In this document: positions 3,281-49,876 of the stretch, in pieces | Numbering within the stretch: position 1 is the first letter of the stretch | How the letters are laid out: every line of letters begins with the position of its first letter | Virus record (IMG/VR): IMGVR_UViG_3300050821_009094 | Location: 1,544 to 65,543 of that record | Direction: 5' to 3' (one strand) | DNA from: a virus | Taxonomy: Duplodnaviria > Caudoviricetes | Length of the DNA stretch: 64,000 nt | Position numbers and translations under genes: made by a program | Notes under the pieces: model-generated | The model's input: the letters and a program-made list of their open reading frames with translations, nothing else | Told to the model about the DNA's origin: nothing | Database searches by the model: none

Positions 3281-3287
3281 TTTAGCC

Positions 3288-3527
3288 TCACTGGTTTCCT
3301 TGGTTGACTGGTTTAAAGGACACTATGCCACCCCACCAAAAATGACAGCACAAAAAGCCGGTAAGGAAGCCAGCAATCCATGGGAATGGAGGGAAATCGG
3401 CTGTAACAGTCCAGACGAAACGCGAGAGTGTCGAAGTATTCTCGTGCAGCGACCAGCCCTCCATGATTGAGAAACTGACCACAATCAGGAGCAACCAGAC
3501 TGCCCATTTGATACTGCCTTTCATCAT
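3288..3527 (-). CDS. small 2-TM membrane protein (second holin or antiholin candidate)
   Basis: 79 aa, two TM stretches, overlaps the endolysin stop. Confidence 0.6.
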   Translation of the reverse strand: MMKGSIKWAVWLLLIVVSFSIMEGWSLHENTSTLSRFVWTVTADFPPFPWIAGFLTGFLCCHFWWGGIVSFKPVNQGNQ

Positions 3528-4102: not shown

Positions 4103-4214
4103 TTTTCCTCACCCACGCAGCGAAATGCTCGTTCTTCATGTGCTCATGCCATTGCTTCTCGGTCATCTGGCCGGACAAATAGCAGGCGAGGATGAGATCA
4201 TAGCGGTGGCTCAT
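4095..4214 (-). CDS. 39-aa hypothetical protein
   Basis: MSHRYDLILACYLSGQMTEKQWHEHMKNEHFAAWVRKNG; fills the gap, overlapping both neighbours. Confidence 0.55.
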   Translation of the reverse strand: MSHRYDLILACYLSGQMTEKQWHEHMKNEHFAAWVRKNG

Positions 4215-4411
4215 TTGGGCGCCTCACATTTAGCTTTCGCTTCGTCTAACTGCTTTTGCAAGTCGACGATTTGTTTGGCCTGGGCTTCGACTGTCAGCGC
4301 CCATTGAGCGATGACACCATTGATTGCCAGCGCGGTTTGCGACGGGGTGCGTTGCTCTTGCGCTAACGCCGGGGAGCTGAATAGTAAGGCCACGCCAATT
4401 AAGAATTTCAT
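4211..4411 (-). CDS. small secreted coiled-coil protein
   Basis: signal peptide MKFLIGVALLFSSPALA-Q. Confidence 0.7.
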   Translation of the reverse strand: MKFLIGVALLFSSPALAQEQRTPSQTALAINGVIAQWALTVEAQAKQIVDLQKQLDEAKAKCEAPK

Positions 4412-4418
4412 ATTTCAC

Positions 4419-5813: not shown

Positions 5814-6288
5814 AGAACACCGTGATGTTGGCTGTTGCGGCTGCGCCCTGGGCGTTTTGCAGTTGGAAGTAGATCACGGTGTCCGAGAACACCATTGTAT
5901 CCTGACTGTTGATTGTCAGCGACTGAGCGTTATTGTTGGTATCGGCGTTCGGCGTCGTGATGGTGATGGCCGATCCGGCAGTGACGATCGCAACACCGCC
6001 TTGTTGGATACCGGTGAACACGCCGCACGTCGCCATGGTCAGTGCCGACGAAGACCCTGAGATAACGATTCGATCGCAGCGCCAGCGGGTGAACCCGACT
6101 GGCAGATTGATCAGGATCGGGTTGTCGAAGTTGGTTTGATTAAAGTTGACGTTGGTGATTGACTGCGAGAGCAACCCCTGGGTATTAAGCAGGATCGCGG
6201 TCCCGCCGTCGCCAACCACTTCATTGGTCGTCCAGACCGCCAGATGCCCTGGAGTAACCCTGCCTGACTGGAGAACCCGGTTGCTCAT
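5797..6288 (-). CDS. fibre-block protein without signal peptide, paralog of 12194..12745
   Basis: shares QSGxVxPGHLAxW, RWRC, ATCGVFTG, NAQSLTIN and VFYEPLP with 12194..12745. Confidence 0.8.
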   Translation of the reverse strand: MSNRVLQSGRVTPGHLAVWTTNEVVGDGGTAILLNTQGLLSQSITNVNFNQTNFDNPILINLPVGFTRWRCDRIVISGSSSALTMATCGVFTGIQQGGVAIVTAGSAITITTPNADTNNNAQSLTINSQDTMVFSDTVIYFQLQNAQGAAATANITVFYEPLP

Positions 6289-6301
6289 GGTTCGAGCTAT
6301 A

Positions 6302-7666
6302 TCACATATGGAACAAGCAGTGATAGACGAGTTTTGTGCCGCTGATTGAACCGCTGGTCACCGACCATCCCGTGTATGGGCTGGAACCAATGGGCGTAAC
6401 CGCAAGTCCTCCCGTGACGATGCAATCCGGCAATTGCAACCACGTTTGAGATTGGAACGTTACCGTACAGCCCGTAGCACCAGACCCCACGGTAATCGTA
6501 CCGCTGGTGTCGGTATCATTGGTATCGATGCTTGCTCCCGATCCGCATGAACTAACAGCAGGTGGTGACGCGCTCGGTGACTGGTTATAGGGGTAATGGG
6601 TAGCCAAACCCGACGCGGTGAAGTAGCCCTGAAAATTGGTGCCTTGATACACTAAACTCGACGCGACGGAACAGCCGGAAACGATTTGCTGTTTCATCAC
6701 GCCATTGTTGGCGCCCGCCAGGTTGGTGCTGCCGACCAGCCAATAGCACGGGCCGCCGACGCTACCAGTTATGGTATCGTACGACCCGAATGTGTTTATC
6801 CCGGTGCTGTCACCCCTGATAACGCCGGTCTGCCCGCCGCCGAGTATTGTACCCGATCCGATGAAATTGATCGTCGCGCCGTCATCCAGCCACTGCCCGC
6901 CGTTGAATATGTCAACGACTGATTGTGTAAGTCCGGTCCCAACCGTGATATTGGCGACGCCGGTAACAAAAACCTCGCCGCCGCCTTCAAGGTTGAAAAT
7001 ATCACGGCCGGATGACGGCCCAAAATTATTGGTGCCACTGAACTGGACCTTGGTGCCAGTCCACGCGCTCACGATATTGCAAACATAGGTCGCTTCACTG
7101 GTTGCGTTGGCGCTTATGCCGTGGAGATTATAATTGCCGGAGTAGAACAATAAGACTGCGCCATCGCCGCCCCAATCGCCCTTGTTGCAGGTCCCGTTCG
7201 GCGGCGAGATGACGACACTGGACGGCGATGCGTCGTTGCCGAAAATCTCTATCTGGCTGTAGCCATAATTGGCGTTGCAAGTGAAGCATTTCGGAAAGCC
7301 AATAGGCGATCCAAATTGTGGTGTCTCGGGATAGGTGCCATTGCCCGTGTATATTACGGCGCTGCCGACATTGAAACTCCAGAGCAGCGTCTGGTTCATA
7401 ATATAGAGAGCATTCTGGAGTGTCTTGCATGGCGCGGCGATCGTCAGACACGTATTTGAGTCGCTTCCTGCCTGACAGGTCGATCCACCGTTGACACCAC
7501 ACGGCGTCGTGCCACTGCCGGATGGGTTGACGTAAAGAGCGACATTGCCGGTAACCAGCGAGATCAGACTGGCGATGGCAGCACCCCGGATCCAGCCCGG
7601 CGCCACTTGCGGGACCAGAACAAGCGCAACCGCTGATGCAATTAGAAACGTTCGCAGTGCCTTCAT
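6302..7666 (-). CDS. signal-peptide beta-helix-like receptor-binding/depolymerase-like protein
   Basis: MKALRTFLIASAVALVLV leader; YVNPSG..GSDSNTCLT.AAPCKTLQNA..GNGTYPE motif typical of pectin-lyase-fold N-termini; 14 Cys. Confidence 0.7.
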   Translation of the reverse strand: MKALRTFLIASAVALVLVPQVAPGWIRGAAIASLISLVTGNVALYVNPSGSGTTPCGVNGGSTCQAGSDSNTCLTIAAPCKTLQNALYIMNQTLLWSFNVGSAVIYTGNGTYPETPQFGSPIGFPKCFTCNANYGYSQIEIFGNDASPSSVVISPPNGTCNKGDWGGDGAVLLFYSGNYNLHGISANATSEATYVCNIVSAWTGTKVQFSGTNNFGPSSGRDIFNLEGGGEVFVTGVANITVGTGLTQSVVDIFNGGQWLDDGATINFIGSGTILGGGQTGVIRGDSTGINTFGSYDTITGSVGGPCYWLVGSTNLAGANNGVMKQQIVSGCSVASSLVYQGTNFQGYFTASGLATHYPYNQSPSASPPAVSSCGSGASIDTNDTDTSGTITVGSGATGCTVTFQSQTWLQLPDCIVTGGLAVTPIGSSPYTGWSVTSGSISGTKLVYHCLFHM

Positions 7667-10600
7667 GGGATAACCTCGACGATTTGAGCATCGGCTGCAA
7701 GCGATACCGAAACCGATGACGTTGAGTGAGTTGTAGTTGGGGTGGTGCTGACTATGGGATCGTAGACGTTGACGGTCGTCGCCGTGATCGGCAGCGTTAC
7801 CGTAAGCGACGATGTGGAAGGTGTTACTTGGCTATGGGTTGTATCGTTCCATATCGTCGGTTCCTTCCAGATCACGATTTCCCATGTGCCATTTGATTTC
7901 TCCAGCAGCAAGGAATTGCCGCCGCCTGCCCCTGCCGCAGGCAACCCGGAAATCGAATAATTGAACTGGCCAGGCGTAAACGTTAGAGCCGTACCGCCGG
8001 TGTCATTGAGTATCGTGTAGGTGTTTTTTACCGCGGTGCCATTCACCTTAATGGTCGCCTGATCGCTCTGATAAAAACCGTAGTTATCGATGCAAGCACC
8101 ATCGCCGGTGTTGAAGTCAAAAAGTGTATAAAGCGTCGTGTAGGGAACGCCTGCGGTAAACATATCGAAATAGATATTCATCTCCAATCGCGCCTGCGTG
8201 GTCTGATCGACCGCGCCAGTCTGCGCCGAAGGCGTGCAATAGCCGCCCTCGGTTATGACAGTAGGCGCGCCAACAATCGGCTGGTTGGCCGGATTGAGCG
8301 CCGCCACCATCGTTGAGCCGACATAGGTCGTCGGCTGCGTGCCGCTGAATGGATAAAAATGGATGTTGTTGTAATTTGCCGTGCCGGCAATGCTCGGCGG
8401 CTGCGGCACCGTGTTGCCGAAGTAGCTGGTGTAATTTGCTACCTGGACGCCGGCCCCGGTCAGGGTCGCATCGGCTTGCGTGACGTTATAAATCAACGCC
8501 TGCCATAACAGACTGGAGGCCACCGATGCTTCGAGTTGCGCCAGCGGCGCGGCAGATGGGCCTGTGACGCCCTGTGCCGAGAACTGGATAAGATCGCCAC
8601 TTTTTACACCACCATTGATGGCGTTGGCGCTCATCGTCAGCGTGGTGCTGGTGGCTGATACGACCGTGGTGCCCGGCGCTATCGCCGGCAAAACGGCGGC
8701 AGCATTGAGCACAACGGCATCCGCTATGGCGCCGTTAGCATTGCCGGCGCCGGTCCCGATCGTGACCGACAATCCCGACTGGGTGGATGTGAATGTCTGG
8801 TATTCGTTAAGCGTGTAAAAGCCGTTGCCGAGCTGTGTATAACCCGAGCCGGCTGTTGGTGCCGCGGTCGAGGCCATGCGGAAACCGCCGAGAACAACCG
8901 TGTTGTTATGCGAAGTCGAGATGGTAAGAGGATCGGTTGTCCCCGTAATGGGGGAGCCATCGAAAGGCGACGACGTATTGCAATTGACAATTCCAACGAC
9001 ACCAGCCGCGACAAAACCGGGAGGATTGCTAAACGTAATGGTGTCGGTCTGAGGAAATCCACCGCTTGACGGTCCTATGGCATAGAATTCCTGCTCTGGC
9101 TGTCCTGTGCCGGCAGTTGCTCGCAACGCCCAGCTCAAACTCAAAGAATCGTTTACCGCAGAGATAGCGCCGGTATTTGTCGCCGTGAACGCCACCAGAC
9201 ACTCGTTCGGCGAGTTTATTGTAATGGGAACCTGAAAACCCGTACTGCAACTGGCACAAGAAAGATAGTTGCTCCCTGGATCAACGGTTTGAGAAACATC
9301 TGTTACCGTTATGCCGGTGCCGGCATTGACCGTTCCGGTCCCGCTGAGTGTAAAGCTGTAGTTGCCGACCGACTCGACTTCGGCAGGCGTTGCGGCGAAG
9401 TGCAGTACGGCGCTGCTGGTGGACGTGGTGTTGTTGGTGGTGCCAGTGTTGACATAGCAAATCGGGAAATTGTTGGTCTCGTTCGGTCCCTCGTTCGCCA
9501 GCATCTTGCCGGGGTAAGTGGTAACAAACGTATTCATCAAGGCAATGGATGCAGCCGCACCGGTTGACGCATTATCACAGTCAATGGTCGGAAAACTGAC
9601 CGGGCCGTTGATCCAAAGGAAATTAAACCTGACGTTATCGTTTGCTGCGAGATAATTATAATTGCCACCGCCGTCGCCTGGCGTCGGCATGACGGCGCGC
9701 GCTACCGTCATCCCCATATTCGACATCGCGGTTCCGGCTGCGGCGGCAGGTGTGCCAAGAGGATCAACAACGCCGACCGAATTGGTGAAGTTCTTGGCGC
9801 GTTGCGCCTGCGCTCCAATGGTGCAAGGCGAACTCCCAATGCCCCCGACTGCAATCAAATAATTGGCAAAGGCACCGCAGGTGTTTGAAACATCTTGGGC
9901 AGTCATTTGACTGCCCCAGAATGCCATGGCTACTATTGACGTGGAATCCGAGAATGCGCCGCCGGCGCCATAATAATTAAGCAGGTTTGCAGTACCAGTT
10001 CCAACGCTGTTCGAAGTAGAATTCGGCGAACCTATTGCAGTGTTGTTAAAATACAGCGTAGTTGCCGATACTCCGGTACGTACCGCAACGGCATAACCTG
10101 ACTGAGATGCTTCGGTTTCTTGATCGAATCCTAAACTATTGGAAAGTTGAGCAAGCAAAGTACCAGCGCCGGCATTGTTTTCCACCAATGCGTAGACAGC
10201 GGTATTAGCCGAGCCGCCTAGCATTATACCGCCGTTTGTTGGAGCAGTCCCCAACAACCAACCGCCGAGGCTGACACTGTTCTGCGTCAACTGAGTGCCG
10301 GAAGTAAATGAAACTCCGCTGGCTAAATAGCTGGTTGAACCATCCGAATTATAGCCTTCATTGGCTGTGAAAGTCGGCGAGTTGACCGCAGTCAAAGTTG
10401 CCGTGCCGGGATTTTTCCAATTGATCAGGGCCGACTGACTATCGGCTGCCGCCGGAACATAGAGGTAATCCATCTTCCCCCAAACATTCGATGGATTCGC
10501 CAAAAGTGCCGCAACCAGATTGTTGATCGCGGTTTTGTATGCTGTCGTTGGCGGGGTATTAAACGCTGCAAAAATTGCACACGATTGTGCGAGGTACGGA

Positions 10601-10704
10601 CAAACTGTGCCGGGCACAGTATGATTATAACTAGAATCACGACCAGGCGGCAGGCCGGTCCCACAAAGAAGAACAACAAGCAGTACCAGAAACGCGCGCT
10701 TCAT
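7663..10704 (-). CDS. large exported multidomain protein: LamG-like N-terminal domain plus clan GH-A-like glycoside hydrolase with inserted beta domains
   Basis: start MKRAFLVLLVVLLC at 10704 (TGATG overlap); EGPNE, HFYP and ITEGGY motifs fit GH-A acid/base and nucleophile positions. Confidence 0.7.
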   Translation of the reverse strand: MKRAFLVLLVVLLCGTGLPPGRDSSYNHTVPGTVCPYLAQSCAIFAAFNTPPTTAYKTAINNLVAALLANPSNVWGKMDYLYVPAAADSQSALINWKNPGTATLTAVNSPTFTANEGYNSDGSTSYLASGVSFTSGTQLTQNSVSLGGWLLGTAPTNGGIMLGGSANTAVYALVENNAGAGTLLAQLSNSLGFDQETEASQSGYAVAVRTGVSATTLYFNNTAIGSPNSTSNSVGTGTANLLNYYGAGGAFSDSTSIVAMAFWGSQMTAQDVSNTCGAFANYLIAVGGIGSSPCTIGAQAQRAKNFTNSVGVVDPLGTPAAAAGTAMSNMGMTVARAVMPTPGDGGGNYNYLAANDNVRFNFLWINGPVSFPTIDCDNASTGAAASIALMNTFVTTYPGKMLANEGPNETNNFPICYVNTGTTNNTTSTSSAVLHFAATPAEVESVGNYSFTLSGTGTVNAGTGITVTDVSQTVDPGSNYLSCASCSTGFQVPITINSPNECLVAFTATNTGAISAVNDSLSLSWALRATAGTGQPEQEFYAIGPSSGGFPQTDTITFSNPPGFVAAGVVGIVNCNTSSPFDGSPITGTTDPLTISTSHNNTVVLGGFRMASTAAPTAGSGYTQLGNGFYTLNEYQTFTSTQSGLSVTIGTGAGNANGAIADAVVLNAAAVLPAIAPGTTVVSATSTTLTMSANAINGGVKSGDLIQFSAQGVTGPSAAPLAQLEASVASSLLWQALIYNVTQADATLTGAGVQVANYTSYFGNTVPQPPSIAGTANYNNIHFYPFSGTQPTTYVGSTMVAALNPANQPIVGAPTVITEGGYCTPSAQTGAVDQTTQARLEMNIYFDMFTAGVPYTTLYTLFDFNTGDGACIDNYGFYQSDQATIKVNGTAVKNTYTILNDTGGTALTFTPGQFNYSISGLPAAGAGGGNSLLLEKSNGTWEIVIWKEPTIWNDTTHSQVTPSTSSLTVTLPITATTVNVYDPIVSTTPTTTHSTSSVSVSLAADAQIVEVIP

Positions 10705-12197
10705 CAGATCGAGTATCCCCACGCCGTTACTGAAACTACGCCGCCGGTGCTTGCAGCCGACGAAATGACGGCAATCGAGGTTGATACGGCACTCGCCGGA
10801 ATGCAGGGGCTAAATACTTCCTCGGTAACACCTAACCCGGAAGCATTCGGCGCGGTCCACTGCGTGAAATTAAGTGTTCCTGTCACAGTGCCCGTCACCG
10901 TCGCATTGCCGGTCACAGCCGCGGTTGCGTTGGCGCGGATAGAGAAGCCACAAATATACGTCAAATGCCCGGATACGTTGGTCAGCGTCGCCGTCGTCGC
11001 CGCAGTCGTGCCGGTAGTAGAGGCCGTGATGGGCACGGCAGTTGCCGGATATGGGCTGATCGAGTCGACCGCACCGATGTTTACCGTATGCGATACTTGT
11101 GCCGGGATCGGTTGCCCGGTATTGGTCGCAATCGCCGCAAGTGAAGAATTGCCGGTCGTCTGCAGCGCTGCAGTCGCCGCCGATCCAAGCGTGGTGTTGA
11201 TCGTGCCGAGCGAGGTGTTGATAGTGGTCAGCGTCGAGTTGCCGGTGGTCTGCAGCGATGAAGTTGAGGCACCGGTTGGCAACGGAAATGCCGACGCGAT
11301 ACTGACCGGTTGCGTGGTGGCAGAGGCATCGACCAGCAGCGCATTTCCGACCGTGACATTGGCCGAATTGCTGCCCTGATGGATCGTCATCAACCAGGGC
11401 GACGTGTTTGGGGTATTGCCCGGCTGTACCGTCCAGGTGCCCGACTCAGTCGCCGGGAAGGTACCGCCCGTGCCGGTCGTTAAGATCGCCGTGCCATTGG
11501 CCCCGGTGTTGGCCAGACTGACCTGCGCAGGAGAAGCCGCAGTACCGATCTCAGCACCAGCCGCGGTGCGCAAATTGACCATGCCAGCGCGATAGGCTGT
11601 CATCTGCCATGCACCGGTCTGGCCCGTCGTCAAGGGATTGGAGGTCGCCGTGGTCTGGAACACGCCGCCGGCAGGGGTCAGCGCCGTGGTGCCGAACGTG
11701 AACGCGGACTCGTCCACAACCGCCGTACCGCCCGAGCCGGCGCAGCCGGTCACGCAGTTGACGATCAGGCGCCCCGAGGCGTCGAGCTGCAACCCCTCGA
11801 ACTGACCAGTCGAAGGACTGGGCAGTGACGAGTTGTACACGCCGCCAATGAACAGTCCCTTGGCCGGGGCGGTAGCACCTGGCGCGACTTGTACGGCAAT
11901 CTGATTAGCTGCTGTTCCCGCTCCAGTCGGTAACGGCCACGACACAGCACTGACAGGCTGGGTCGTGGTGCCTGTCGGGTCAGTACGCAGGGGGGCGCCA
12001 GCAGTGGCGACTTCGGTGCCGGACGAGTTTTCCAGCACCATGGCGGTGTAATATGGCCCGGAGCCGAAGATCTGGATCAAGAAGGTATTGAGGGCCGCGT
12101 CCTTGTAGGTGTAGGTCGTGGATGCCGCTAGCGCCACCTCCACCGTTACGGCCAGAAACAGAGCGGCGCCGGCCGCGATCTTCTGCAAGCGGGTCAT
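10704..12197 (-). CDS. signal-peptide Thr/Ala-rich fibre-like protein
   Basis: likely start MTRLQKIAAGAALFLAVTVEVALA-A overlaps the upstream stop; repeats TQPVS..PLPTGA and ALQTTGNSSL. Confidence 0.75.
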   Translation of the reverse strand: MTRLQKIAAGAALFLAVTVEVALAASTTYTYKDAALNTFLIQIFGSGPYYTAMVLENSSGTEVATAGAPLRTDPTGTTTQPVSAVSWPLPTGAGTAANQIAVQVAPGATAPAKGLFIGGVYNSSLPSPSTGQFEGLQLDASGRLIVNCVTGCAGSGGTAVVDESAFTFGTTALTPAGGVFQTTATSNPLTTGQTGAWQMTAYRAGMVNLRTAAGAEIGTAASPAQVSLANTGANGTAILTTGTGGTFPATESGTWTVQPGNTPNTSPWLMTIHQGSNSANVTVGNALLVDASATTQPVSIASAFPLPTGASTSSLQTTGNSTLTTINTSLGTINTTLGSAATAALQTTGNSSLAAIATNTGQPIPAQVSHTVNIGAVDSISPYPATAVPITASTTGTTAATTATLTNVSGHLTYICGFSIRANATAAVTGNATVTGTVTGTLNFTQWTAPNASGLGVTEEVFSPCIPASAVSTSIAVISSAASTGGVVSVTAWGYSI

Positions 12198-39100: not shown

Positions 39101-39480
39101 CACAGTTTCCCCATGTTGTCTCGCATGATGCCGTCAATAATGGGCAAAAGAATATCGTCTCGATCCTCGATCGATTCGTCGGCAAAGGCAAGCATGGGGA
39201 TCTTCAAGATCGCCGGCTTCTTCGGATCGTAGAACACGTTGTCCGGCGGTACTTTCCACAACAGGATGCGGCGACGATCCCTGTCATGATCACCCAGTGA
39301 GAAGAACTCGCCAGCACACTCGTCAGTGAAGCGCGTGCCAAATCGCCGGTCGATCTCCATTTGCCGAATTGGCTCGCGGATATGGGCGGTGCGATCCGGG
39401 TGATCATGAAACCACTGGCCATCTTCATCGAGTTTGCGCAAGGTGACAGTCACGCGTAACTCAACACCGCTCGCGGCCAC
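39100..39480 (-). CDS. hypothetical protein
   Basis: coupled ORF; exact start uncertain. Confidence 0.65.
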   Translation of the reverse strand: MAASGVELRVTVTLRKLDEDGQWFHDHPDRTAHIREPIRQMEIDRRFGTRFTDECAGEFFSLGDHDRDRRRILLWKVPPDNVFYDPKKPAILKIPMLAFADESIEDRDDILLPIIDGIMRDNMGKL

Positions 39481-40262
39481 GCGTTACTGACAGCTTCCAC
39501 CGTGGAGAACAGCACGTTCACCGTGCCGTTGGATTCCTCGGCCTCAAAGATCGTCGTCTTGTCCGGCACCAGACACGGCAACTGGCCGTCACGAAACAAG
39601 ATGAACGCCGAGTAACCCCACTCGCGCATGAACCTGCGCAGCGATTCTTGGCTCGATCCCAACGCCTTGAGCGCTGGCTGGTTCAACTCGCAGATGATGT
39701 AAGGAACGTGATCAGCCAGATGCTTGCTGGCACCGCGCAAGGCGTGTTCCTCGGCACCCTCAATGTCGAGTTTGATCAGGCGCGGCGTGGTGTACCAAGT
39801 GTTGAGCGTGATGCCCTCCATCTCCTTCTTACCCATCATCGGCGCCTGACAGCCCAGCGAGTTCAAACCGCCGTGCTCGTGGTAGTGCAGAAACACATTC
39901 TCGTTGGACGACCAAAGCGGGCGATTGCAAATCTCGAAATTGGTCAGCTTGTTGAGCTTGAGATTATCACGCAACTTGAACAGATTGTTCTCGCCCGGCT
40001 CGACCGCAAGCACGATGCCATTGATATCGACGAGCTGCGCCATGACGTTCGTAAAAAACCCGACGTTGGCACCACCGTCGATAGCGAAATCGCCGGGCCG
40101 CAACACGCGGGTCATCAGATGGACGATCTCCGGTTCGGGGCAACCGTAATTCCTGATGCAGATCATCATGTCGCGATCAATTAGAGAATTGGGATCGTGC
40201 GTCATCTGAAACGCAAACTTGCGTTTGTTGATCGTGAAATTGATGTTAACGGTTTGGAGCAC
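39450..40262 (-). CDS. FkbM-family methyltransferase
   Basis: IDGGANVGFF, AVEP and IKLDIEGAE motifs; GTG start after GAGG. Confidence 0.9.
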   Translation of the reverse strand: MLQTVNINFTINKRKFAFQMTHDPNSLIDRDMMICIRNYGCPEPEIVHLMTRVLRPGDFAIDGGANVGFFTNVMAQLVDINGIVLAVEPGENNLFKLRDNLKLNKLTNFEICNRPLWSSNENVFLHYHEHGGLNSLGCQAPMMGKKEMEGITLNTWYTTPRLIKLDIEGAEEHALRGASKHLADHVPYIICELNQPALKALGSSQESLRRFMREWGYSAFILFRDGQLPCLVPDKTTIFEAEESNGTVNVLFSTVEAVSNAWPRAVLSYA

Positions 40263-40263
40263 G

Positions 40264-40446
40264 CTAAACCTCAGTATGCAGGTGATTGTCAGCGATGCCC
40301 CAGATAAAGTTGACGGCCATCGCGTGATTGCATCCTGCGGAAGTATTGTCCTCGCAAACATCTTTGATTTGCTGTAGCGCAGCTCGTAGCCGCTTGATTT
40401 CGGCCTCTAGCTCTCCACAAACGCGGGCCATGGGCATATCGGTCAT
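40264..40446 (-). CDS. small hypothetical protein
   Basis: EIKRLRAALQQI coiled-coil. Confidence 0.6.
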   Translation of the reverse strand: MTDMPMARVCGELEAEIKRLRAALQQIKDVCEDNTSAGCNHAMAVNFIWGIADNHLHTEV

Positions 40447-40682
40447 TTTTGCCTCCGCGCCTTGGCAACCGCTTTTGCGGTTCTGCGACGCTCAAATGTG
40501 CGGTCCAACAATTTCCAGGGTATATGCCAGGCGGGCCAAGCGAGTAAAAGTTCACCTTTTGCGTCGCGCGGCTGAAAGATGCAGCATAAGCCTCTCTTGT
40601 CCTCATAGTACCAAAAGTTCTCGCTCACATTCTGCGGCGAGAGAGAATAGCCATGCTTATCTAAGCGATCAGAGTGGCCCAT
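40443..40682 (-). CDS. hypothetical protein
   Basis: coupled ORF with GGAG RBS. Confidence 0.55.
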   Translation of the reverse strand: MGHSDRLDKHGYSLSPQNVSENFWYYEDKRGLCCIFQPRDAKGELLLAWPAWHIPWKLLDRTFERRRTAKAVAKARRQK

Positions 40683-40683
40683 T

Positions 40684-40851
40684 TCATTCTCCCGACATTG
40701 CAGAAGTTAGCGCCTGTAATGCCTTCGTTGCTTCCCGCAGCAAGTCGCACAGCTCCACCATGTCACAGTCGTACTCAGCGCCGTGCCACCGCTCGCGGTC
40801 CATGTCGTCCGACCATTTTCTGAGTTTGCTCACCAGGGTTTCCAAGCGCAT
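40684..40851 (-). CDS. hypothetical protein
   Basis: MRLETLVSKL start with GGAGAGG RBS inside the GT gene end. Confidence 0.5.
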   Translation of the reverse strand: MRLETLVSKLRKWSDDMDRERWHGAEYDCDMVELCDLLREATKALQALTSAMSGE

Positions 40852-42223
40852 CGATCCTCTCCTGCAAAGCCGTCGTGATCCGGGCGAACACCTTGTCCCA
40901 CCGCATGTCGCGATCCTGGATGAACAGGCGATGGGTCTTGCCGTACCACAGCATCGACTTGCCGTCGTGACCAAGACGGTAGTCGTGGGCGTGGTACGAG
41001 TACGGAATCCACACCTCCTTGCCGATAGCGCCGGCGATATGCGCCAGCGCCGACTCGCAGGTGATGACCAGATCCAGGTGCTGCAGCATGGCCACGGTAT
41101 CGACCACATCGGACACCCAGCCGCTCATGTCACGCACCAGCGACTCGGCGCCGAAATGGCCGAGGTCGAGCTTGCGGTCGTCGAGCTGCAGCGAATAGAG
41201 CTGGATGCCGGGCACTTTGTAGAGATCGAGGAAGTGAATCATCGGAAACGAGCGCCACTTGTCGAGATCGTTGAGCGCCGATCCGGCCCAGGCAATGCCG
41301 ATATGACACTTGATGTCCGGCATCTTCCAGGTATCCGACATGCCGTACACCGGCAGCCGCGGGTGCGGCGCGTTCTTGATCTCGTCATTGGTCAATTGCA
41401 AAGCGAACGGCAGCGAGACGAACGTGGTCCAGGCGTCGGCCTGCGGGTACGACGTCGAAATCGGCGTAAAATTCACGTTGGGCAGATGCGCGAACGTCTC
41501 GGTGAATGCCCGCAACAATGCCGGCTGCACCATGGCGTGAATATATTTGGCGCGTTTCGAAGCGTGTTCAAGGAAGCGCGAGAACGACAGCGTGTCGCCC
41601 ATGCCCTGATCAGCCACCAGAAACACCGTCGCGTCCTTCTCACCCTCCCACTTCGGGTAAGGATAGGTCAGGTAGTTCTTCAGGCGATGCTCGAAGCGTG
41701 ACTCCAGAAACTTGAACCCCTCGGCGTAGTCCTCGTTGAACAACAGCGCGAACGCCAGATTAAACTGGGTCGCGGTATCGCTCGGCTTTAACTCATAAGC
41801 CTTGCGCGCTGCCGCCAACGCGGCCACGCGCTCGCCGAAGGCACCGTGCGCTTGCGACAGGTTCACCCACGGATACGCCTCGTGCGGACCCAACTCAACT
41901 GCGCGCTGCGCAAACGATAACGCTTCCTCGAACTCGCCAAGTTGGTTGAGCCGCCAAGAGGTATTGGACAGCACCTCGATCCGCTTGTCGGTGCCCAGGT
42001 CGCCGTCGAGCGCGCGGCGATAACAGGCGACCGCGGCGTGCAGCCGGCTGATGTCGCCGTTCGAGTTCGCGTTATCCGCCCACGCCTGCCCGAACGTCGG
42101 ATCGACGATGCAGGCGGATTGCAGCAGACCATAGGCGTGGACCGCCCAGTCTTTGTAATTCTGGTTCTTCACCGCCTCGAAGGCGGCGTTGTACATTTTC
42201 AGTGCGGCCGGACGATCACCCAT
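40775..42223 (-). CDS. TPR-repeat glycosyltransferase (GT9-like C-terminus)
   Basis: N-terminal TPRs; DQGMGDTL.F.RF, GIAWAG and LDLVITCESALAHIAGA.G motifs. Confidence 0.9.
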   Translation of the reverse strand: MGDRPAALKMYNAAFEAVKNQNYKDWAVHAYGLLQSACIVDPTFGQAWADNANSNGDISRLHAAVACYRRALDGDLGTDKRIEVLSNTSWRLNQLGEFEEALSFAQRAVELGPHEAYPWVNLSQAHGAFGERVAALAAARKAYELKPSDTATQFNLAFALLFNEDYAEGFKFLESRFEHRLKNYLTYPYPKWEGEKDATVFLVADQGMGDTLSFSRFLEHASKRAKYIHAMVQPALLRAFTETFAHLPNVNFTPISTSYPQADAWTTFVSLPFALQLTNDEIKNAPHPRLPVYGMSDTWKMPDIKCHIGIAWAGSALNDLDKWRSFPMIHFLDLYKVPGIQLYSLQLDDRKLDLGHFGAESLVRDMSGWVSDVVDTVAMLQHLDLVITCESALAHIAGAIGKEVWIPYSYHAHDYRLGHDGKSMLWYGKTHRLFIQDRDMRWDKVFARITTALQERIDALGNPGEQTQKMVGRHGPRAVARR

Positions 42224-42236
42224 TATTAAACCTCAG

Positions 42237-42404
42237 TCAGTCGGTAAGTGCTTCGCGGGCGATCTGCATAAATTTCTTGGCGCCGTCGAAAAAAGCATCA
42301 CCATCTGCGATTTTAGAGAGAGCGGCGCGCAGCCGATCATTTTCCTTATTTAGCTCGATGACCTCTGCGGCCTCGGCCTCGTAAAGCGCGCGGTAGTCGG
42401 CCAT
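42237..42404 (-). CDS. 55-aa hypothetical protein
   Basis: MADYRALYEAE...ENDRLRAALSKIA; fills the gap. Confidence 0.6.
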   Translation of the reverse strand: MADYRALYEAEAAEVIELNKENDRLRAALSKIADGDAFFDGAKKFMQIAREALTD

Positions 42405-42405
42405 T

Positions 42406-43416
42406 TCATTTCTCCGAAATTGCAGAAGTCAGTCGCACCCTGTCAATCGCGCGCCGGATACCCTCGGTCAAGGTAATCCGGCACTGATAGAGTTGCGACA
42501 TCTGGTAGATGTCAGCCACCCGCGAGAACACCCCCTCGGGTTTGAGCGGGTCGTTACGCACGCTGGCACCTGTGCTGGCATAAGCCAGAACTTGTTCGGC
42601 AAGATCGAAGAACGACGTGGAAATGCCGCGGCCGAGGTTCAGCACCTTACCGTAGAGCTTCGGATAGGTCTGCAGCACACATTCCACGATATCGTCGATG
42701 TGGATCCAGTCGCGCTCCTGGTCGCCGGACCCCCACACGATCACCGGGTTCTCGCCATCGAGAACGCGCTTGACGATCGCCGGGAACGGGTAGGTCTTGG
42801 GATCCTGGTCCTCGCCATATCCCCCAAATGGCCGGTAGATCGCAACGTCGAGGCCATACTTCTCCTGGGCAAATCTTGCCAGGTACTCGCCGGCAAACTT
42901 GACGAAGCCGTAGGTCATGTCCGGCTTGCTCCACCGGTTCTGTGCGAGATCGACGTATGATTCGGAAAGTGCGACGTGCTTGTCCCTGGTCTGCAGCTCC
43001 AGCGGGTAGACCGCCGATGACGAGAAATAGATCACCTTCGGATATGGTTTGCGGTCGGTAACCCAACGGAAGAACTCGGAGTCGATGGCCATATCGAGCG
43101 CCACTTCGAGCGGATGATCCTCGATCTTGATCCGACCGCCGACGATCGCCGCGCAATGAATGACCAGATCAAAGCGGTTGGCTGACCAGACGTCGCCCGA
43201 TGAAGCGAAAAAGGACCGACAGTCGCCGATCATGAGCTGAAGATTTTTAACAGAACGGGTGTTGGGATCCCAGGCGTTGGGCTTGAACTCCCAGTCATAC
43301 AGTTCCTTGCCGGCGTACATATTGTCGATCGCGGTCACGATATGACCGTCGTCGAGCAAGCGCTTGACGAAGTGTCGGCCGACGAAGCCGCAGGCGCCTG
43401 TCACAAGGACTTTCAT
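42406..43416 (-). CDS. NAD-dependent nucleotide-sugar epimerase/dehydratase
   Basis: VTGACGFVG, SSSAVY, YGFVK and GSGDQERDWIHIDD motifs. Confidence 0.95.
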   Translation of the reverse strand: MKVLVTGACGFVGRHFVKRLLDDGHIVTAIDNMYAGKELYDWEFKPNAWDPNTRSVKNLQLMIGDCRSFFASSGDVWSANRFDLVIHCAAIVGGRIKIEDHPLEVALDMAIDSEFFRWVTDRKPYPKVIYFSSSAVYPLELQTRDKHVALSESYVDLAQNRWSKPDMTYGFVKFAGEYLARFAQEKYGLDVAIYRPFGGYGEDQDPKTYPFPAIVKRVLDGENPVIVWGSGDQERDWIHIDDIVECVLQTYPKLYGKVLNLGRGISTSFFDLAEQVLAYASTGASVRNDPLKPEGVFSRVADIYQMSQLYQCRITLTEGIRRAIDRVRLTSAISEK

Positions 43417-43417
43417 G

Positions 43418-43810
43418 CTAGGATCCCAACTGTCGTTTTTTGTTACTGATTGGAATTACCTTAGCTCTACTGTCGGCCACAAATTCAGGATGTTGGTGCT
43501 TCATGTGGACAGCCATGTTTGAAAATGTGCGCTGACAGCATGGGCAAGTTCCGGCAGCCGCTCGCTTTTTGATCCTGTTAATCTCTTGCTCTTTTGCCGC
43601 AAGCGCCTCGCGTTTTTCATCCTCGACCCTGGCAAGCTCCTGCTTGAGCTGATCGCGCTCCCTTCGCAACTGTTCCGAAATGGACGTTGTAAAAGACTGC
43701 TCATGTCCATTGGGGCACCAGAAAATCCTGCGGTCATCACGGCGATGGGTACACCACTGATCGGGCACACTAAACGTGATTCCACATTCGCAGCAATTCA
43801 AATAGGCCAT
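43418..43810 (-). CDS. zinc-finger plus coiled-coil protein
   Basis: CCECG, CPNGH, CPCC...HMKHQH. Confidence 0.75.
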   Translation of the reverse strand: MAYLNCCECGITFSVPDQWCTHRRDDRRIFWCPNGHEQSFTTSISEQLRRERDQLKQELARVEDEKREALAAKEQEINRIKKRAAAGTCPCCQRTFSNMAVHMKHQHPEFVADSRAKVIPISNKKRQLGS

Positions 43811-43829
43811 GAAAGTTGCCCTCTAACAA

Positions 43830-45131
43830 TTACAACTCTACGCGCCCATGCGGCAACGTATTCCAGTCGAACCTCCAGCTCGGCATACGCGGCTGCTCGC
43901 GCTGGCAGCGCACGCCGTAGAATATGGTGCCTGGATTGAGCATGTTGATGCGAATGGTGCGGTACGCGATGTTGCCCGGCAGGTTCACCGTGATGATCGT
44001 GCCGTCCTTGCCCTCGGGCGGCAGCACCGGGCGCGCGGTCCAGCCGGACTGCTCGTCGATGATCATCACCTCGCCGCCAACCGTGCCGCCGCTCACCATG
44101 ATCTCGGCAGGGCCGAAGATGGGGACAAACGCACGCGGATCCCAGTCCTCACTGGCCGAGTCGGCGATCCAGCCGAACGGGCCGAAGCCTGGTGAGTCTT
44201 TCAGTTTCCAGTTGCCCTGGTAATGGCCGCCGATGGCACCGATCTGGTGGGCAAAAATGGTATGGCCGCCTTGCTGGTCGTGGAAGAACAAGGTGTCGGG
44301 CAATCTGAAATTGCCTTGCCGGATACTCGTGAGAGTGTCGCGGTAACGGTTGAATCCCTCGCTCAAACCCCCCTTGTGCGTTACAAGTTTCAGTCCTTGC
44401 TGCTCAAGCGGCGGGATCTGCCCGATCATCTCGACGTGCGAGGGCGTCAGAGCGAGGGAGGCGAGACCGTGGCTGGCCAAGAGGGTGTCCCACCGCCAGT
44501 CGGCTACCAGGAAATGCTCCTGGCCGCGGAATGCCCAGTATTTGCCAATGTCGGTTCCGGTCAACATGGCGAACGCCGCGCGGTTCTCGCTGGTCCATTG
44601 CGTGCGGTAGTGCTTGAGAACTAGTTCTGCGGCCTCGCGGGTGAAGATGATCATGCCGGCGCCGAGGTTGTGGCAGATGGCGTAATCCGGGCGCTGGATC
44701 AGGACGCGATCCTCGTAGCAGCGTGCGGACACGGCACCGACTTCGAGGCCATCGGCTTTGCCCTGCTCGAACAAGGCCATGGTCGGCTCGAACCAGTCCT
44801 TCGGCAGCACCACGTCATTCTCGACGAGACCGATGTAATCGTAGATCTGATCCTTGAAAGTGAAGCCCTGAGAGCGATGATTCACACCCTCTCCTGCGTT
44901 GAGCATCATGGTCAGCGCGTAGATGATCGCTGGTCCTGAGCCGCCACGCACATGATTGTGCATATATAAATTATCGCCATAATGCTCATTAGCAAAATTG
45001 AATCCTTCAAGGTACTTACTGCCATCCACCCAATGCAAATCAAACTTGTCAGGCTGCAAAAGCGGCTCGATCGACTGACGCGACAGTTCGACGCGATCGC
45101 AGGTCGAGAAGGCTATGGCGACGCGGTTCAT
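43830..45131 (-). CDS. GT-A (GT2-like) glycosyltransferase
   Basis: FSTCDR, WVDGS and GLVENDVVL motifs. Confidence 0.75.
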   Translation of the reverse strand: MNRVAIAFSTCDRVELSRQSIEPLLQPDKFDLHWVDGSKYLEGFNFANEHYGDNLYMHNHVRGGSGPAIIYALTMMLNAGEGVNHRSQGFTFKDQIYDYIGLVENDVVLPKDWFEPTMALFEQGKADGLEVGAVSARCYEDRVLIQRPDYAICHNLGAGMIIFTREAAELVLKHYRTQWTSENRAAFAMLTGTDIGKYWAFRGQEHFLVADWRWDTLLASHGLASLALTPSHVEMIGQIPPLEQQGLKLVTHKGGLSEGFNRYRDTLTSIRQGNFRLPDTLFFHDQQGGHTIFAHQIGAIGGHYQGNWKLKDSPGFGPFGWIADSASEDWDPRAFVPIFGPAEIMVSGGTVGGEVMIIDEQSGWTARPVLPPEGKDGTIITVNLPGNIAYRTIRINMLNPGTIFYGVRCQREQPRMPSWRFDWNTLPHGRVEL

Positions 45132-46135
45132 AGTACGTCCACGCAGTCGTTTAACCACGCCTCCCAGAAGGCAGGTGGAAACAGTTTCTGGTCAAACCCA
45201 GCTACGAGAATCCCAACGTCGGTCACGACCGACTCGCCGGGGATCGGCGCACGGTCCAGGTACTCGGCAAACTCCGCGATCCGCTCGTTGCCGATCATCT
45301 CGTTGCGCAGGTCGGGCAACAGCGGTCGGGACTGGCGGGCGTGAAAGGCGGCTGGCGGGCCGAAATAGGTGTACAGGTTGCGCTCGCGCATGATCCTGCG
45401 CATTAACAGGGAAGCGAAGATGTCGGTGTTGCGGCCTTGCGCGGAGTAGAGCTGGGCGAAGGCGGGGGCCAGCTCGCGCCGGAATGCGGTGATTTGCGAG
45501 TTGAACACGGCTCTGGCGGCCGGATCCACCACGAAACCAGCGCGGAGCACGTCGCTGGTATTGATAATCATGGGTTTGTTAGTAATGGCATTTGCAGCAT
45601 CGCAATCCGGGACGCCAAGGATGATGCCTTGGGCCACGCCGATCTGAGCATCGGTTATAAAAGTAACATCAGTGTAGAACAGCGTATCGTAAGGCAATCC
45701 ACGTTGGTTAGTGACCGGCGTTGCGCACGCACCAACGTTGAACCATTGCTTGGCAAAGCCGAGCTGGAGACCGTGATAAGGATTACCAAGTAACCCATAC
45801 CACCCCCAAAAAAACGACCAGTTTGAATTCATCGGGATCATATCGTCATCGATACTCACGATAATGTCAGCGCCCCACTTCAGGGCTTCGAGCAGTGCGA
45901 TGTTGCGGCGGCTGTCGGTGTTCCACCCGATCAGCTCGGATGATTTGTATTCCATGTGCTTCTGCTGCGCGCAGCCATAGGCCCAGCAGTTCGGCAGCGC
46001 GTCGCAGAACTCATAAGCCTCCTGCGGCGTCTTTTGATCGCCGGCGACGAAGAACATCACGTCGGGATCGTGGGCGCGGTACAAGGAGAGGACACGCGGC
46101 ACGTTGATGGTGGTGGTGATTAGCGCGACCTTCAC
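45128..46135 (-). CDS. STELLO/DUF288 / reversibly glycosylated polypeptide (GT75)-like protein
   Basis: ITTTIN.P, AGDQKTP, RRNIALL, SIDDD, PDCDA, FNSQ and RNTDI motifs; GTG start overlaps the upstream stop. Confidence 0.8.
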   Translation of the reverse strand: MKVALITTTINVPRVLSLYRAHDPDVMFFVAGDQKTPQEAYEFCDALPNCWAYGCAQQKHMEYKSSELIGWNTDSRRNIALLEALKWGADIIVSIDDDMIPMNSNWSFFWGWYGLLGNPYHGLQLGFAKQWFNVGACATPVTNQRGLPYDTLFYTDVTFITDAQIGVAQGIILGVPDCDAANAITNKPMIINTSDVLRAGFVVDPAARAVFNSQITAFRRELAPAFAQLYSAQGRNTDIFASLLMRRIMRERNLYTYFGPPAAFHARQSRPLLPDLRNEMIGNERIAEFAEYLDRAPIPGESVVTDVGILVAGFDQKLFPPAFWEAWLNDCVDVL

Positions 46136-46293
46136 GACGGATCTTCCTTCCTCGACTTGAGATAAGCCAGCCGCCACTGCTCCAGGATGCGGATGATGAT
46201 CTGCGACACGGTACGACCTTCCTCACTGCCGCGGCGGCGCAGGAAATCCTTGAGTTGCTTGTCGAGACGGATCGAAGTCGGAGATTCGGACAT
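46132..46293 (-). CDS. ribbon-helix-helix DNA-binding protein (53 aa)
   Basis: PTSIRLDKQLKDFLRRRGSEEGRTVSQIIIRILEQW; below the ORF-track cutoff. Confidence 0.75.
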   Translation of the reverse strand: MSESPTSIRLDKQLKDFLRRRGSEEGRTVSQIIIRILEQWRLAYLKSRKEDPS

Positions 46294-46948: not shown

Positions 46949-47449
46949 CTAGAACAGATCTACCAGCATATCCGCAGTACGGCGCATCAGCTCAGCATAT
47001 GCGGGACGCGTTACAGGATTGCCGGCCGAGAAGTTGGCAATGCGCAAAGCCTCGTCCTCGCGCTGTTCCAGCATGATCTTCTGCGCCAGCATGATGTCGC
47101 CGGTGGTGTAGGCGCCTTGAGGGACGAAGCAGAGGCTGCGTACCACCTGGTTCTGGTTGTTCAGCTCGCGCACATTGAAGGTTGTTCGGCGCTCGATGCG
47201 GTACTTTTTGCAGGTGACGTTGCCGATGACGTGGAAATAACCATGCTTGTCGAAGTCCTGGTTTTGTTTCTTGGTTAGCCAGGATTGCAGAAGTTCGATC
47301 GACTTGTGCTCGGCTTCGGCCTCATTGTAGGTGTAGGTCGTGGCGTTCACCGGCTGCGCCACGTAACCACTTCCAGCGTTGAGAATAGTCACTTCGGTCA
47401 CAGCACCAACGTCGTCGTATTCAATCAGTGCCGAAGCAAAGACGGCCAT
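46949..47449 (-). CDS. hypothetical protein coupled to the GG-terminal protein
   Basis: TAATG overlap; ELLQSWL...YF.VIG...YRI...LCFVP...GDIMLAQK.MLE. Confidence 0.75.
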   Translation of the reverse strand: MAVFASALIEYDDVGAVTEVTILNAGSGYVAQPVNATTYTYNEAEAEHKSIELLQSWLTKKQNQDFDKHGYFHVIGNVTCKKYRIERRTTFNVRELNNQNQVVRSLCFVPQGAYTTGDIMLAQKIMLEQREDEALRIANFSAGNPVTRPAYAELMRRTADMLVDLF

Positions 47450-47655
47450 TAGCCGCCCTGCATCCGCGGCACGAACAGCGTCTCGTCGGCGGTCGGATCG
47501 AACTGGCGGGTGACCGTGTAGTCCTTTTGATCGGCCTTGCGCGTGGCTGCGGTCGAGCCGAGGCCTACGAGTTCGTTGAACTTTTCCATCGCATCGTTGG
47601 TGTCGGTGATGTCGAGCGTGGTGTGGCCGGTGTGGTCGAGGATCTGGAATTTCAT
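47449..47655 (-). CDS. 68-aa protein ending in Gly-Gly
   Basis: AAGGA RBS; ends FDPTADETLFVPRMQGG. Confidence 0.8.
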   Translation of the reverse strand: MKFQILDHTGHTTLDITDTNDAMEKFNELVGLGSTAATRKADQKDYTVTRQFDPTADETLFVPRMQGG

Positions 47656-47678
47656 CTGGTGTCCTTTCGGGTTGCAGT

Positions 47679-49184: not shown

Positions 49185-49838
49185 CTAGGCAGCTTTCTCC
49201 GCGCTAGTCTTGGCATAGAACCATTCCGGCGCTACCGTCGTCGCCTCGCCGCGCACTGGCATAAGCACACCAAAGGCGTGAGGCGAATTCGCGAACAGCA
49301 CAAGCGCCGGCGAATTGCAGTCCGATCCACAGAATAGCAATTCCCCGTTACGGCCGGTATCGCTTACCTTTTCCAATTCGATCGCCGCCGTCGCGAACGA
49401 GGCCATATACCGGCCGCGAAACCAGGGATGAAGCGTCTTTGTCGGGTCAATCTTCACGTCCGGCACCACGCGCCGATAGTCAGGAAACGTGCCATCGACA
49501 AACACTTTTGCCGATAGGCCGATCGATTCCCACGTTTCGCCGCTATCGAGGCTTTTCTCAATCAAAGCATCCTGGCCGTCGATCGTCACGCGCCGAGTCT
49601 CGCGCGGCTTGCTCTTACAAAGCTTCATGGCGTCCGGCGAAAGCTGCACAATGCCGGACTGGTCGGCGCTGCCCGTTTCGTCGCGAACGCAAATCAGCCG
49701 ATGGCCATCTGTCACCGTCATGGTCACACCGCCAGCCGCACAAGGCTCGACATACACACCAATCAAGTAATAACGCGTCTGTTCGTCCGATTCGAACGCT
49801 GTTACGATTCGGTAGAGATCCGCGTTGAATTTCATCAT
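49185..49838 (-). CDS. DNA polymerase III beta-clamp-like protein (truncated, about two domains)
   Basis: RYYLIGV, VTDGHRL, GTFPDYRRVVP and VLMPVR motifs. Confidence 0.85.
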   Translation of the reverse strand: MMKFNADLYRIVTAFESDEQTRYYLIGVYVEPCAAGGVTMTVTDGHRLICVRDETGSADQSGIVQLSPDAMKLCKSKPRETRRVTIDGQDALIEKSLDSGETWESIGLSAKVFVDGTFPDYRRVVPDVKIDPTKTLHPWFRGRYMASFATAAIELEKVSDTGRNGELLFCGSDCNSPALVLFANSPHAFGVLMPVRGEATTVAPEWFYAKTSAEKAA

Positions 49839-49876
49839 CACACCCTCCATTGTCCCGCCATCATTGGCGTCTGCAT

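Follow-up and report, generated by a model that had tools for sequence, protein, structure and literature searches.

The closest described counterparts of the module reported here are the bacterial ubiquitin-like protein (Ubl) conjugation systems Bil, Bub and Cap2, the last belonging to the cyclic oligonucleotide-based antiphage signaling system (CBASS). As described in PMC11601596 and PMC10557695, each of these encodes its own E1, and all characterized bacterial Ubl conjugation systems are host-borne, with Bil and CBASS Cap2 acting in antiphage defense and such a role only suggested for Bub. The E2 proteins of Bil are proposed in the same accounts to pick their targets directly, with no E3 (PMC11601596; PMC10557695). 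Type I Bub, as set out in PMC11601596, comprises a Ubl-E2 fusion (BubAB) that is cut after Gly, a peptidase-E1 protein (BubCD) and BubE, and works via oxyester intermediates, with an E1 and peptidases. A Ubl domain with a conserved C-terminal Gly is present in a phage protein, the tail assembly protein I of lambda and T1, where protein K is a JAB and NlpC/P60 protein; a 2006 survey of prokaryotic Ubl systems presents this lambda tail Ubl with JAB together with several E1-containing operons, and the gene pair described below is not among the operons that its text lays out (PMC1779556). Here we analyze a 64,000-nucleotide stretch of a Caudoviricetes genome (IMG/VR record IMGVR_UViG_3300050821_009094, positions 1,544 to 65,543; hereafter the window), in which two overlapping genes, A and B, are predicted to encode a Ubl and an E2-like protein. 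Our preferred reading, to which we assign a rough probability of 0.4, is that A is a Ubl modifier and B an E2-like carrier, the two dependent on an E1 supplied in trans.

The A-B pair shares features with several of these systems and is identical to none. Like Bil, in which BilA is the Ubl, BilB the E2, BilC the JAB peptidase and BilD the E1, it would combine a β-grasp Ubl bearing a reactive C-terminal Gly with a small, Cys-bearing protein of E2 fold. Bil, however, always encodes an E1 and a JAB peptidase, whereas the E1 family ThiF is absent from nine of the 11 phage records with the pair, and Prok-JAB from four of the six that were searched. There is no sequence similarity between A-B and Bil, and A-B is phage-borne while Bil sits in a host defense island. 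The operons of Bil, Bub and Cap2 include an E1 and usually a peptidase; the original prediction for this locus, made from the letters of the window, had noted that no E1/ThiF or JAB gene lies there, and indeed no ThiF or Prok-JAB match occurs across the whole 65.5-kb phage record. In a naturally fused form of the pair, described below, the order is Ubl then E2 with Gly at the junction, as in BubAB (PMC11601596). Unlike Bub, A-B keeps an invariant Cys and usually comes without E1 or peptidase, and A normally ends at Gly-Gly (GG), with no processing needed. Cap2, an E1-E2 fusion, and the short E2 of E2-CBASS would resemble B, as modeled, in placing an E2 fold in non-canonical active-site surroundings, but they conjugate the C-terminus of the cyclase itself rather than a separate Ubl, and Cap2 has its own E1 domain.

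Comparisons beyond antiphage defense are also informative. ThiS, MoaD, TtuB and the archaeal SAMP proteins, which work with UbaA, are, like A, small β-grasp proteins with a GG end. In these systems one common MoeB/ThiF-type enzyme carries out activation, and a housekeeping E1 can serve several Ubls. Their partners are not of UBC fold, as B is predicted to be, and A has no ThiS match in Pfam. The lambda/T1 Ubl is tied to a JAB peptidase in the tail cluster, whereas the partner of A is predicted to be UBC-like and the neighboring genes are not conserved. Some eukaryotic viruses carry an E2 or a ubiquitin but no E1, namely African swine fever virus with UBCv1 and baculovirus with v-ubi, and rely on the E1 of the host. 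The logic proposed for A-B is the same, in that the virus would bring the modifier or the E2 and the host E1 would be used; UBCv1 and v-ubi, though, are clear sequence homologs of cellular E2 and ubiquitin, while A and B are recognizable by predicted fold only. A-B thus appears, on the models presented below, to be a Ubl and E2-like module of a very large, unnamed family, carried by phages and usually without an E1.

The window makes up nearly all of a 65,543-bp virus record that has direct terminal repeats and is rated 100% complete. The features of the pair, in window positions, are as follows.

47449-47655, minus strand: gene A, 68 amino acids, C-terminus LFVPRMQGG, from the open reading frame (ORF) and its translation.
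47452-47457, minus strand: codons of Gly67 and Gly68 of gene A, from the sequence.
47449-47451, minus strand: TAA stop of gene A, from the sequence.
47660-47666, minus strand: putative ribosome-binding site GAAAGGA, a few bases 5' of the gene A ATG, inferred from the sequence.
46949-47449, minus strand: gene B, 166 amino acids, an ORF carrying LCFVP and GDIMLAQK.
47447-47449, minus strand: ATG of gene B, sharing one base with the gene A TAA to give TAATG, from the sequence.
47330-47449, minus strand: B residues 1-40, a variable, low-confidence N-terminal region (predicted local distance difference test, pLDDT, 40-57; no conservation across homologs).
47024-47329, minus strand: B residues 41-142, a conserved, predicted UBC/RWD/UEV-like domain (model pLDDT mostly >90; structural matches).
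47129-47131, minus strand: codon of Cys107 at the end of strand 4, invariant and inside the predicted interface with the tail of A.
47066-47098, minus strand: motif D118-x2-L-A-Q-K-x2-L-E128 in the helix after the Cys loop, from alignments; it touches A in the co-fold.

The 68-residue protein ending LFVPRMQGG named in the original prediction is thus a real minus-strand ORF, and the TAATG overlap that had been noted between its stop and the start of a 166-residue protein with LCFVP...GDIMLAQK is seen in the sequence. An alternative 251-residue frame starting with TTG overlaps gene A and is rich in Arg and His. As the closest B homologs, P0019 and P0022, begin with MAVFAS, exactly as B of the window does, we take the ATG at 47449 to be the start of gene B.

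The GG end of A is retained among close and distant relatives alike. A word-based search returned 15 relatives at 56-96% identity, and GG is found in all 16 sequences once A of the window is included; seven further copies at 29-57% identity, from a scan of viral contigs, all end in GG (as PQMKGG, PARQGG, PALMGG or PQLQGG), each with a B-like gene directly after it. In an alignment of 20 sequences, the invariant positions of A are M1, D7, G10, H11, A22, F26, G33, A36, F52, P63, G67 and G68. Among the A-like ORFs beside B domains, 33 of 37 have a free GG, two end in AG (one A sequence, identical on two contigs) and two are fused with an internal GG. All 80 Bradyrhizobium copies of A end in GG, in the form PRLVGG. 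The third positions of the two Gly codons vary freely between GGC, GGA, GGT and GGG.

B combines an N-terminal part that varies between homologs with a conserved domain about 95 residues long. Residues L58, Q62, F72, C107, D118, L121, Q123, K124, E128 and E131 are invariant across 27 sequences, and L58, C107, D118, L121, A122, Q123, K124, L127 and E128 across 35 phage domains. Cys107 itself is kept in 27/27 and 35/35 of these and in 148 of 149 domain instances (147 of the best 150 profile-matched proteins). At the Cys site many homologs have C-x-H-P, while the window copy reads LCFVP; the C-x-H-P form recalls the HPN motif of E2 enzymes, yet the two are not identical. Both the GG end and the Cys, the invariance of which had been named as a check on the original prediction, are by alignment near-invariant down to about 30% identity, a pattern of conservation far beyond chance.

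A and B are also a linked, co-translated pair. We scanned viral contigs with the B alignment, which yielded 39 loci, and then sought A-like ORFs with a hidden Markov model of A. An A-like ORF is present at 37 of the 39; at the other two (L010 and L047), the B match lies less than 260 nt from the contig end. A is a separate upstream ORF ending in GG at 32 of the 37, and at one locus, L040, it is found downstream of B with the GG end kept. The distance from the A stop to the nearest start in the B frame, taken over 31 loci (three duplicates, two fusions, L040 and the two loci with no A set aside), is between -8 and +4 nt in 28 and 30, 44 and 87 nt in the other three. Gene linkage across homologs, another of the checks that had been proposed, thus holds at these phage loci and likewise at 80 of 80 Bradyrhizobium loci.

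On two jumbo-phage contigs, 435 and 231 kb long, A is joined to B in one in-frame protein with no stop after GG (...FVPPMQGG-LMVML...; L028 3499-6315 and L035 3499-6315, identical in sequence). A search for longer or fused forms of A gave four proteins, three with an extended N-terminus and one running past GG, none of them informative as a fusion. We discarded the idea of a recoding event that links A to B: the frame of B with respect to A differs from locus to locus, all three being represented.

The B model, built from 27 sequences, reaches a pLDDT above 90 over most of residues 41-142. It contains helices at 43-57 and 60-69, strands at 71-75, 82-86, 93-96 and 102-107, helices at 116-129 and 131-137, and a strand at 139-142, an arrangement that fits the UBC-type order of secondary structure. 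Compared with 48,161 chains by VIA-align, the model matches Ubc9 first (Z 5.2, root-mean-square deviation (rmsd) 3.2, 83 residues aligned); next come RWD domains, GCN2 among them (Z 4.4), then VPS37A, FANCL, E2S, Cap2 (7to3, Z 3.1), the CdnG-bound E2 (8hsb, Z 2.8) and BilB (8tyz_C, Z 2.7). At least 30 of the top 50 rows are, by title, E2, RWD, UEV, FANCL, Cap2 or BilB chains, with the RWD and UEV chains, at Z 4.4 to 3.0, tied with the E2s. We assign residues 41-142 to a predicted UBC/RWD/UEV-like domain because the match list is one-sided and the secondary-structure order fits; no single score carries the assignment. The 75 long B-domain members have no Pfam domain at E ≤0.001.

The N-terminal region of B (47330-47449) contains one VTxxTIxNxGSGYxxxP motif, in the window of the form VTEVTILNAGSGYVAQP, similar to a repeat found in gp14, the neck protein of a T4-like cyanophage. 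By BLASTP, B and cyanophage gp14 share 25% identity over 146 columns, confined to this motif region. A lead towards a head closure or neck protein (PHROG E 0.009; tblastn E 1) was rejected, the conserved domain aligning to gp14 with an hhalign probability of 0.3%.

The AlphaFold model of A, from 20 sequences, has a pLDDT of 87 and the order strand-strand-helix-strand-strand-strand, followed by a free tail. The top rows listed by Foldseek against PDB are all β-grasp proteins (a ubiquitin variant, PB1 domains, Ras-binding domains, NEDD8, Ufm1 and TtuB), at E 0.075 or worse. VIA-align places A with PB1 (Z 5.4, rmsd 2.8, 64 residues aligned), TtuB (Z 4.2) and MoaD (Z 4.1). In the ESM Atlas only unnamed clusters were found, the nearest named one being the ThiS family with a score of 0.78, a level that by the tool's own statement is often chance. 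Together, these comparisons lead us to predict that A is a ubiquitin-like β-grasp protein.

We co-folded B residues 38-166 with A in three runs, alongside three controls. The interface score ipSAE was 0.74, 0.75 and 0.74, against 0.00 for the best of the controls; in a benchmark, the ipSAE mark is attained by 58 of 80 solved complexes and by 2 of 110 mismatched pairs. Contacts are at least 95% consistent between runs, and the pLDDT of the partner is 86 or higher. The predicted interface comprises residues 46-60, 107-115, 118, 121-122, 125-126, 129-130 and 133-139 of B and residues 4, 6-11, 35, 37, 44, 46-48, 60 and 62-68 of A. B residues 118, 121, 122, 125, 126 and 129 contact the sheet and tail of A, and A residues 63-66 lie against B residues 108-110, 122 and 126. 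Whether the GG tail reaches the Cys had been posed as a further check; the model answers by placing Cys107 and tail residues 62-68 together within the predicted interface. The pose seems to resemble a donor ubiquitin folded back on the E2 crossover helix, an analogy that we draw from the model.

The two records in which ThiF and Prok-JAB are found are jumbo phages of 436 and 407 kb. Both have a gene cluster for a VWA-like protein, an unassigned protein (305-385 amino acids), a JAB peptidase, a small E1 of ThiF type and a Ubl other than A. This second Ubl ends PKTPFG, one copy being two residues longer. The clusters are located as follows.

L147 (G411:C1:329000-343000), 3051-8382 and 9369-10343: E1-JAB cluster.
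L148 (G413:C1:230000-244000), 6719-10835: E1-JAB cluster.

Cluster and A-B pair are separated by 190 and 142 kb in the two genomes. The 436-kb phage has, in addition, a solo B paralog on the strand opposite to the E1 and some 1 kb past it. Jumbo phages with the pair have one A each and four, two and one B genes, respectively, with differing N-termini; at G411 144517-147539, three B-domain genes lie within 3 kb around the single A. One A with several B paralogs fits one modifier serving several carriers.

The B family is large. Its domain profile has 9,124 matches at E ≤0.001 and 5,911 at E ≤1e-10 among 1.84 billion cluster representatives (50% identity). The best 150 matches are proteins of 101-516 residues, with the domain at or near the C-terminus in most. 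Two proteins, P0051 (377 residues) and P0052 (516 residues), contain two tandem B domains. Against 50,697 GenBank phage records, tblastn gave no match for A or for three of four B domains, and for B of the window only the neck-protein row at E = 1; a megablast of 8 kb of the window against GenBank phages likewise gave no match. With no clear relative in GenBank phages, the B family resides mainly in uncultured viruses. A viral structure library gave three matches to B, one of them an uncharacterized protein of Agrobacterium phage Atu_ph07.

Scanning species genomes gave 436 confirmed stretches, of which the best 80 form the basis of the Bradyrhizobium counts given here. Nearly all of these 80 are from Bradyrhizobium, in line with the occurrence in Bradyrhizobium-like genomes that the original prediction had named, and all 80 have an A-like ORF directly upstream of B. 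With L059 as the query, the pair is present at 79 of 79 other loci, at a mean identity of 92% for A and 88% for B. The pair at L059 7767-8423 exemplifies the syntenic chromosomal form (loci L048-L127). An SLT_2 transglycosylase upstream and a MaoC-type dehydratase downstream are common to about 64-74 loci; farther out are an acyl-CoA-type ligase, a flavoprotein, a shikimate-dehydrogenase-like gene and an AcrB pump. With these flanks, the site does not look like a prophage. Two loci, L049 and L048, have a common context unlike that of the other Bradyrhizobium loci. Two or three copies are present in some Bradyrhizobium genomes, and a copy is found on 13 Bradyrhizobium plasmids. Of 401 genomes sampled evenly from the same phylum, only five have the B domain, all of 7.2-8.9 Mb.

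In the mechanism we propose, A and B would act as a self-contained, co-translated two-protein module in which the free Gly-Gly carboxyl end of A would be the working part. The two proteins would bind 1:1, with the sheet of A on B helix 116-129 and the tail of A along the loop starting at Cys107. The C-terminus of A would be adenylated by an E1-type enzyme not encoded in the module, most plausibly a host enzyme of the MoeB/ThiF type. Activated A would be passed to Cys107 of B as a thioester and then transferred to targets chosen by the variable N-terminal region of B. Activation in trans, the thioester on Cys107 and any target are what we infer for such a pathway. We had started from the suggestion of a two-gene protein-tagging system, offered as a candidate for minimal conjugation. 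The notion of a two-gene Ubl module has gained support that is real, if indirect, from the predicted folds, the linkage, the coupling, the fusion and the co-fold with its controls; that of a minimal conjugation system has not, as nine of the 11 phage records have no E1. A broader proposal is that this is a large two-gene tagging family of phages and Bradyrhizobium, in which a phage Ubl would be charged by a housekeeping MoeB/ThiF-type E1 of the host, loaded on the Cys of the phage E2-like protein and attached to host or phage proteins chosen by the hypervariable N-terminus; we regard this as somewhat doubtful.

A number of results weigh against a Ubl modifier and an E2-like carrier. The absence of ThiF from most records persists among those at least 90% complete, where it is found in one of seven and absent from six. 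The 435-kb record with a fusion (G412) has no ThiF or Prok-JAB match, and GG is internal in the fused copies. A solo B beside the E1 is seen in one jumbo phage only; the other phage with an E1-JAB cluster has no B gene nearby. No third conserved gene was found beside the pair when neighboring ORFs were clustered over 40 loci, eight duplicate or same-contig loci (L001, L005, L016, L024, L032, L033, L035 and L037) having been excluded. Family searches offer no help: at E ≤1, no Ubl or E2 family of Pfam, NCBIfam, PHROG or PADLOC is matched by either protein; B matches no Pfam family (UQ_con, Prok-E2) at this threshold; B and its homologs match no meaningful NCBIfam, PHROG or PADLOC family, one homolog giving a weak PADLOC match at E 0.015; and A and its homologs match no Pfam (including ThiS PF02597 and other Ubl families), NCBIfam, PHROG or PADLOC family significantly. 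Among PDB sequences, the B domain profile picked up just two chains, both unrelated (E 0.2 and 1.9), and neither A nor B has a Foldseek match in PDB at E ≤0.001. All VIA-align Z scores for both proteins are below 8, the tool's own caution line. Cys107 is at the end of strand 4, not at the canonical E2 position after the HPN motif. Finally, the co-fold could mirror the model's fold-level memory of E2-ubiquitin complexes.

Some of these same points bear on the possibility that A and B form a non-covalent heterodimer with no transfer, in which B would be a silent UEV/RWD-like grip on A and the complex would serve as an adaptor, an inhibitor or a mimic of a charged E2, including a decoy against Bil, Bub or CBASS Cap2. 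In the structural comparison, RWD and UEV domains are on a par with true E2s (Z 4.4 versus 5.2, counted as tied), the Cys is outside the canonical E2 position, and an E1 is missing from most records; the tight coupling and confident interface fit an obligate complex, and the neighboring genes differ between phages, as expected of accessory or counter-defense genes. Yet the near-absolute conservation of the free GG and the Cys exceeds the usual need of a binding role, and the invariant Cys in the alignments argues against B as a purely silent RWD/UEV domain. In most of the Bradyrhizobium species examined, moreover, the pair keeps a syntenic place amid housekeeping genes (mean identity of A, 92%), and neither protein matches a PADLOC model beyond the weak hit of the one homolog. 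A decoy in particular is hard to square with a chromosomal copy that Bradyrhizobium conserves by vertical descent and with several B paralogs per single A in jumbo phages. We consider such a dimer unlikely overall. A toxin-antitoxin or enzyme-inhibitor-like pair, in which the activity of B would depend on Cys107 and the tail of A would plug the site, is less probable still. It would account for a small first gene translationally coupled to a second, for the mobility of the pair among unrelated phage genomes, chromosomes and the 13 Bradyrhizobium plasmids, and for the A tail that covers the Cys loop in the predicted complex; A, however, lacks a DNA-binding fold, B matches no toxin family, and a natural A-B fusion and several B per A are unusual for such pairs. 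To our knowledge, the UBC-like fold is not a known toxin fold.

We also considered that A is a sulfur carrier like ThiS, MoaD or TtuB, its GG forming a thiocarboxylate, with B transferring sulfur via Cys107 for a thio-modified nucleic acid or cofactor. The small GG protein and its coupled partner of about 150 amino acids recall moaD-moaE, TtuB and MoaD are among the structural matches of A (Z 4.2 and 4.1), and ThiS is the nearest named ESM Atlas cluster, albeit at a score (0.78) often reached by chance. B, on the other hand, matches UBC, RWD and UEV domains, with no MoaE, rhodanese or PP-loop protein among the listed rows, which is a weak test; neither protein has a ThiS or MoaE match in Pfam, no sulfur-metabolism gene is linked to the pair, and an adenylating enzyme would be needed here too, all of which makes this role improbable in our view. 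The GG codons might instead be kept at the level of DNA, as a Shine-Dalgarno-like GGNGG for re-initiation on B. GGNGGN does occur 3-9 nt upstream of the B start in most loci, and in several it is GGAGG, but the commonest form, GGCGGC, is a poor match to the consensus, and a purine-rich site would allow other residues, of which only AG occurs, in one identical A on two contigs. GG is also kept where B starts 30-87 nt away (L020, L027 and L042), where A is downstream of B (L040) and in the fused form; because it persists under distant starts, reversed order and fusion, a nucleotide-level reason is disfavored, to the point that we give it hardly any weight.

Around the pair in the window, the 5' neighbors on the same strand are a primase, a RusA-like or clamp-like protein and a Dam-type methyltransferase. 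The second of these, a 221-residue protein at 49185-49850 on the minus strand, matches the RusA-like resolvase family of PHROG (E 4e-20); weak matches to sliding clamps (PHROG E 6e-05; Pfam DNA_pol3_beta_2 E 0.006) conflict with this assignment. On the 3' side, also on the same strand, are an unassigned 154-residue protein, two unassigned proteins, a sugar epimerase, a TPR protein, an FkbM methyltransferase and a terminase-like protein. Genes of sugar-modification type run over 39450-46177 on the minus strand, 3' of the pair (an NAD-dependent epimerase, the FkbM methyltransferase, the TPR protein with a faint GT9 match and two large unassigned proteins), and are placed between the replication and packaging genes. 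Elsewhere, a pair-carrying phage (L004 and L005, 5315-5800) has, just upstream, an HD-domain protein resembling a (p)ppGpp hydrolase, as judged by eye from the sequence.

A full-text literature search found no description of the A-B module; the supplementary operon lists of Bil and Bub were outside that search and may mention relatives. Should the broader proposal of a two-gene tagging family charged by a host E1 be true, this would be the first bacteriophage-encoded protein-tagging system and a parallel, in the bacterial world, to the eukaryotic viruses that bring their own E2 or ubiquitin. A phage Ubl with an E2-like partner, usually with no E1, would reverse the picture of host defense and would suggest that bacterial viruses tag proteins, probably via a borrowed host enzyme. 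Naming the B family, whose 9,124 representatives have no Pfam, PHROG or NCBIfam name, would annotate a sizeable part of viral dark matter, and the conserved, single-copy pair in Bradyrhizobium, which is culturable and non-pathogenic, offers a direct route to its genetics and biochemistry.

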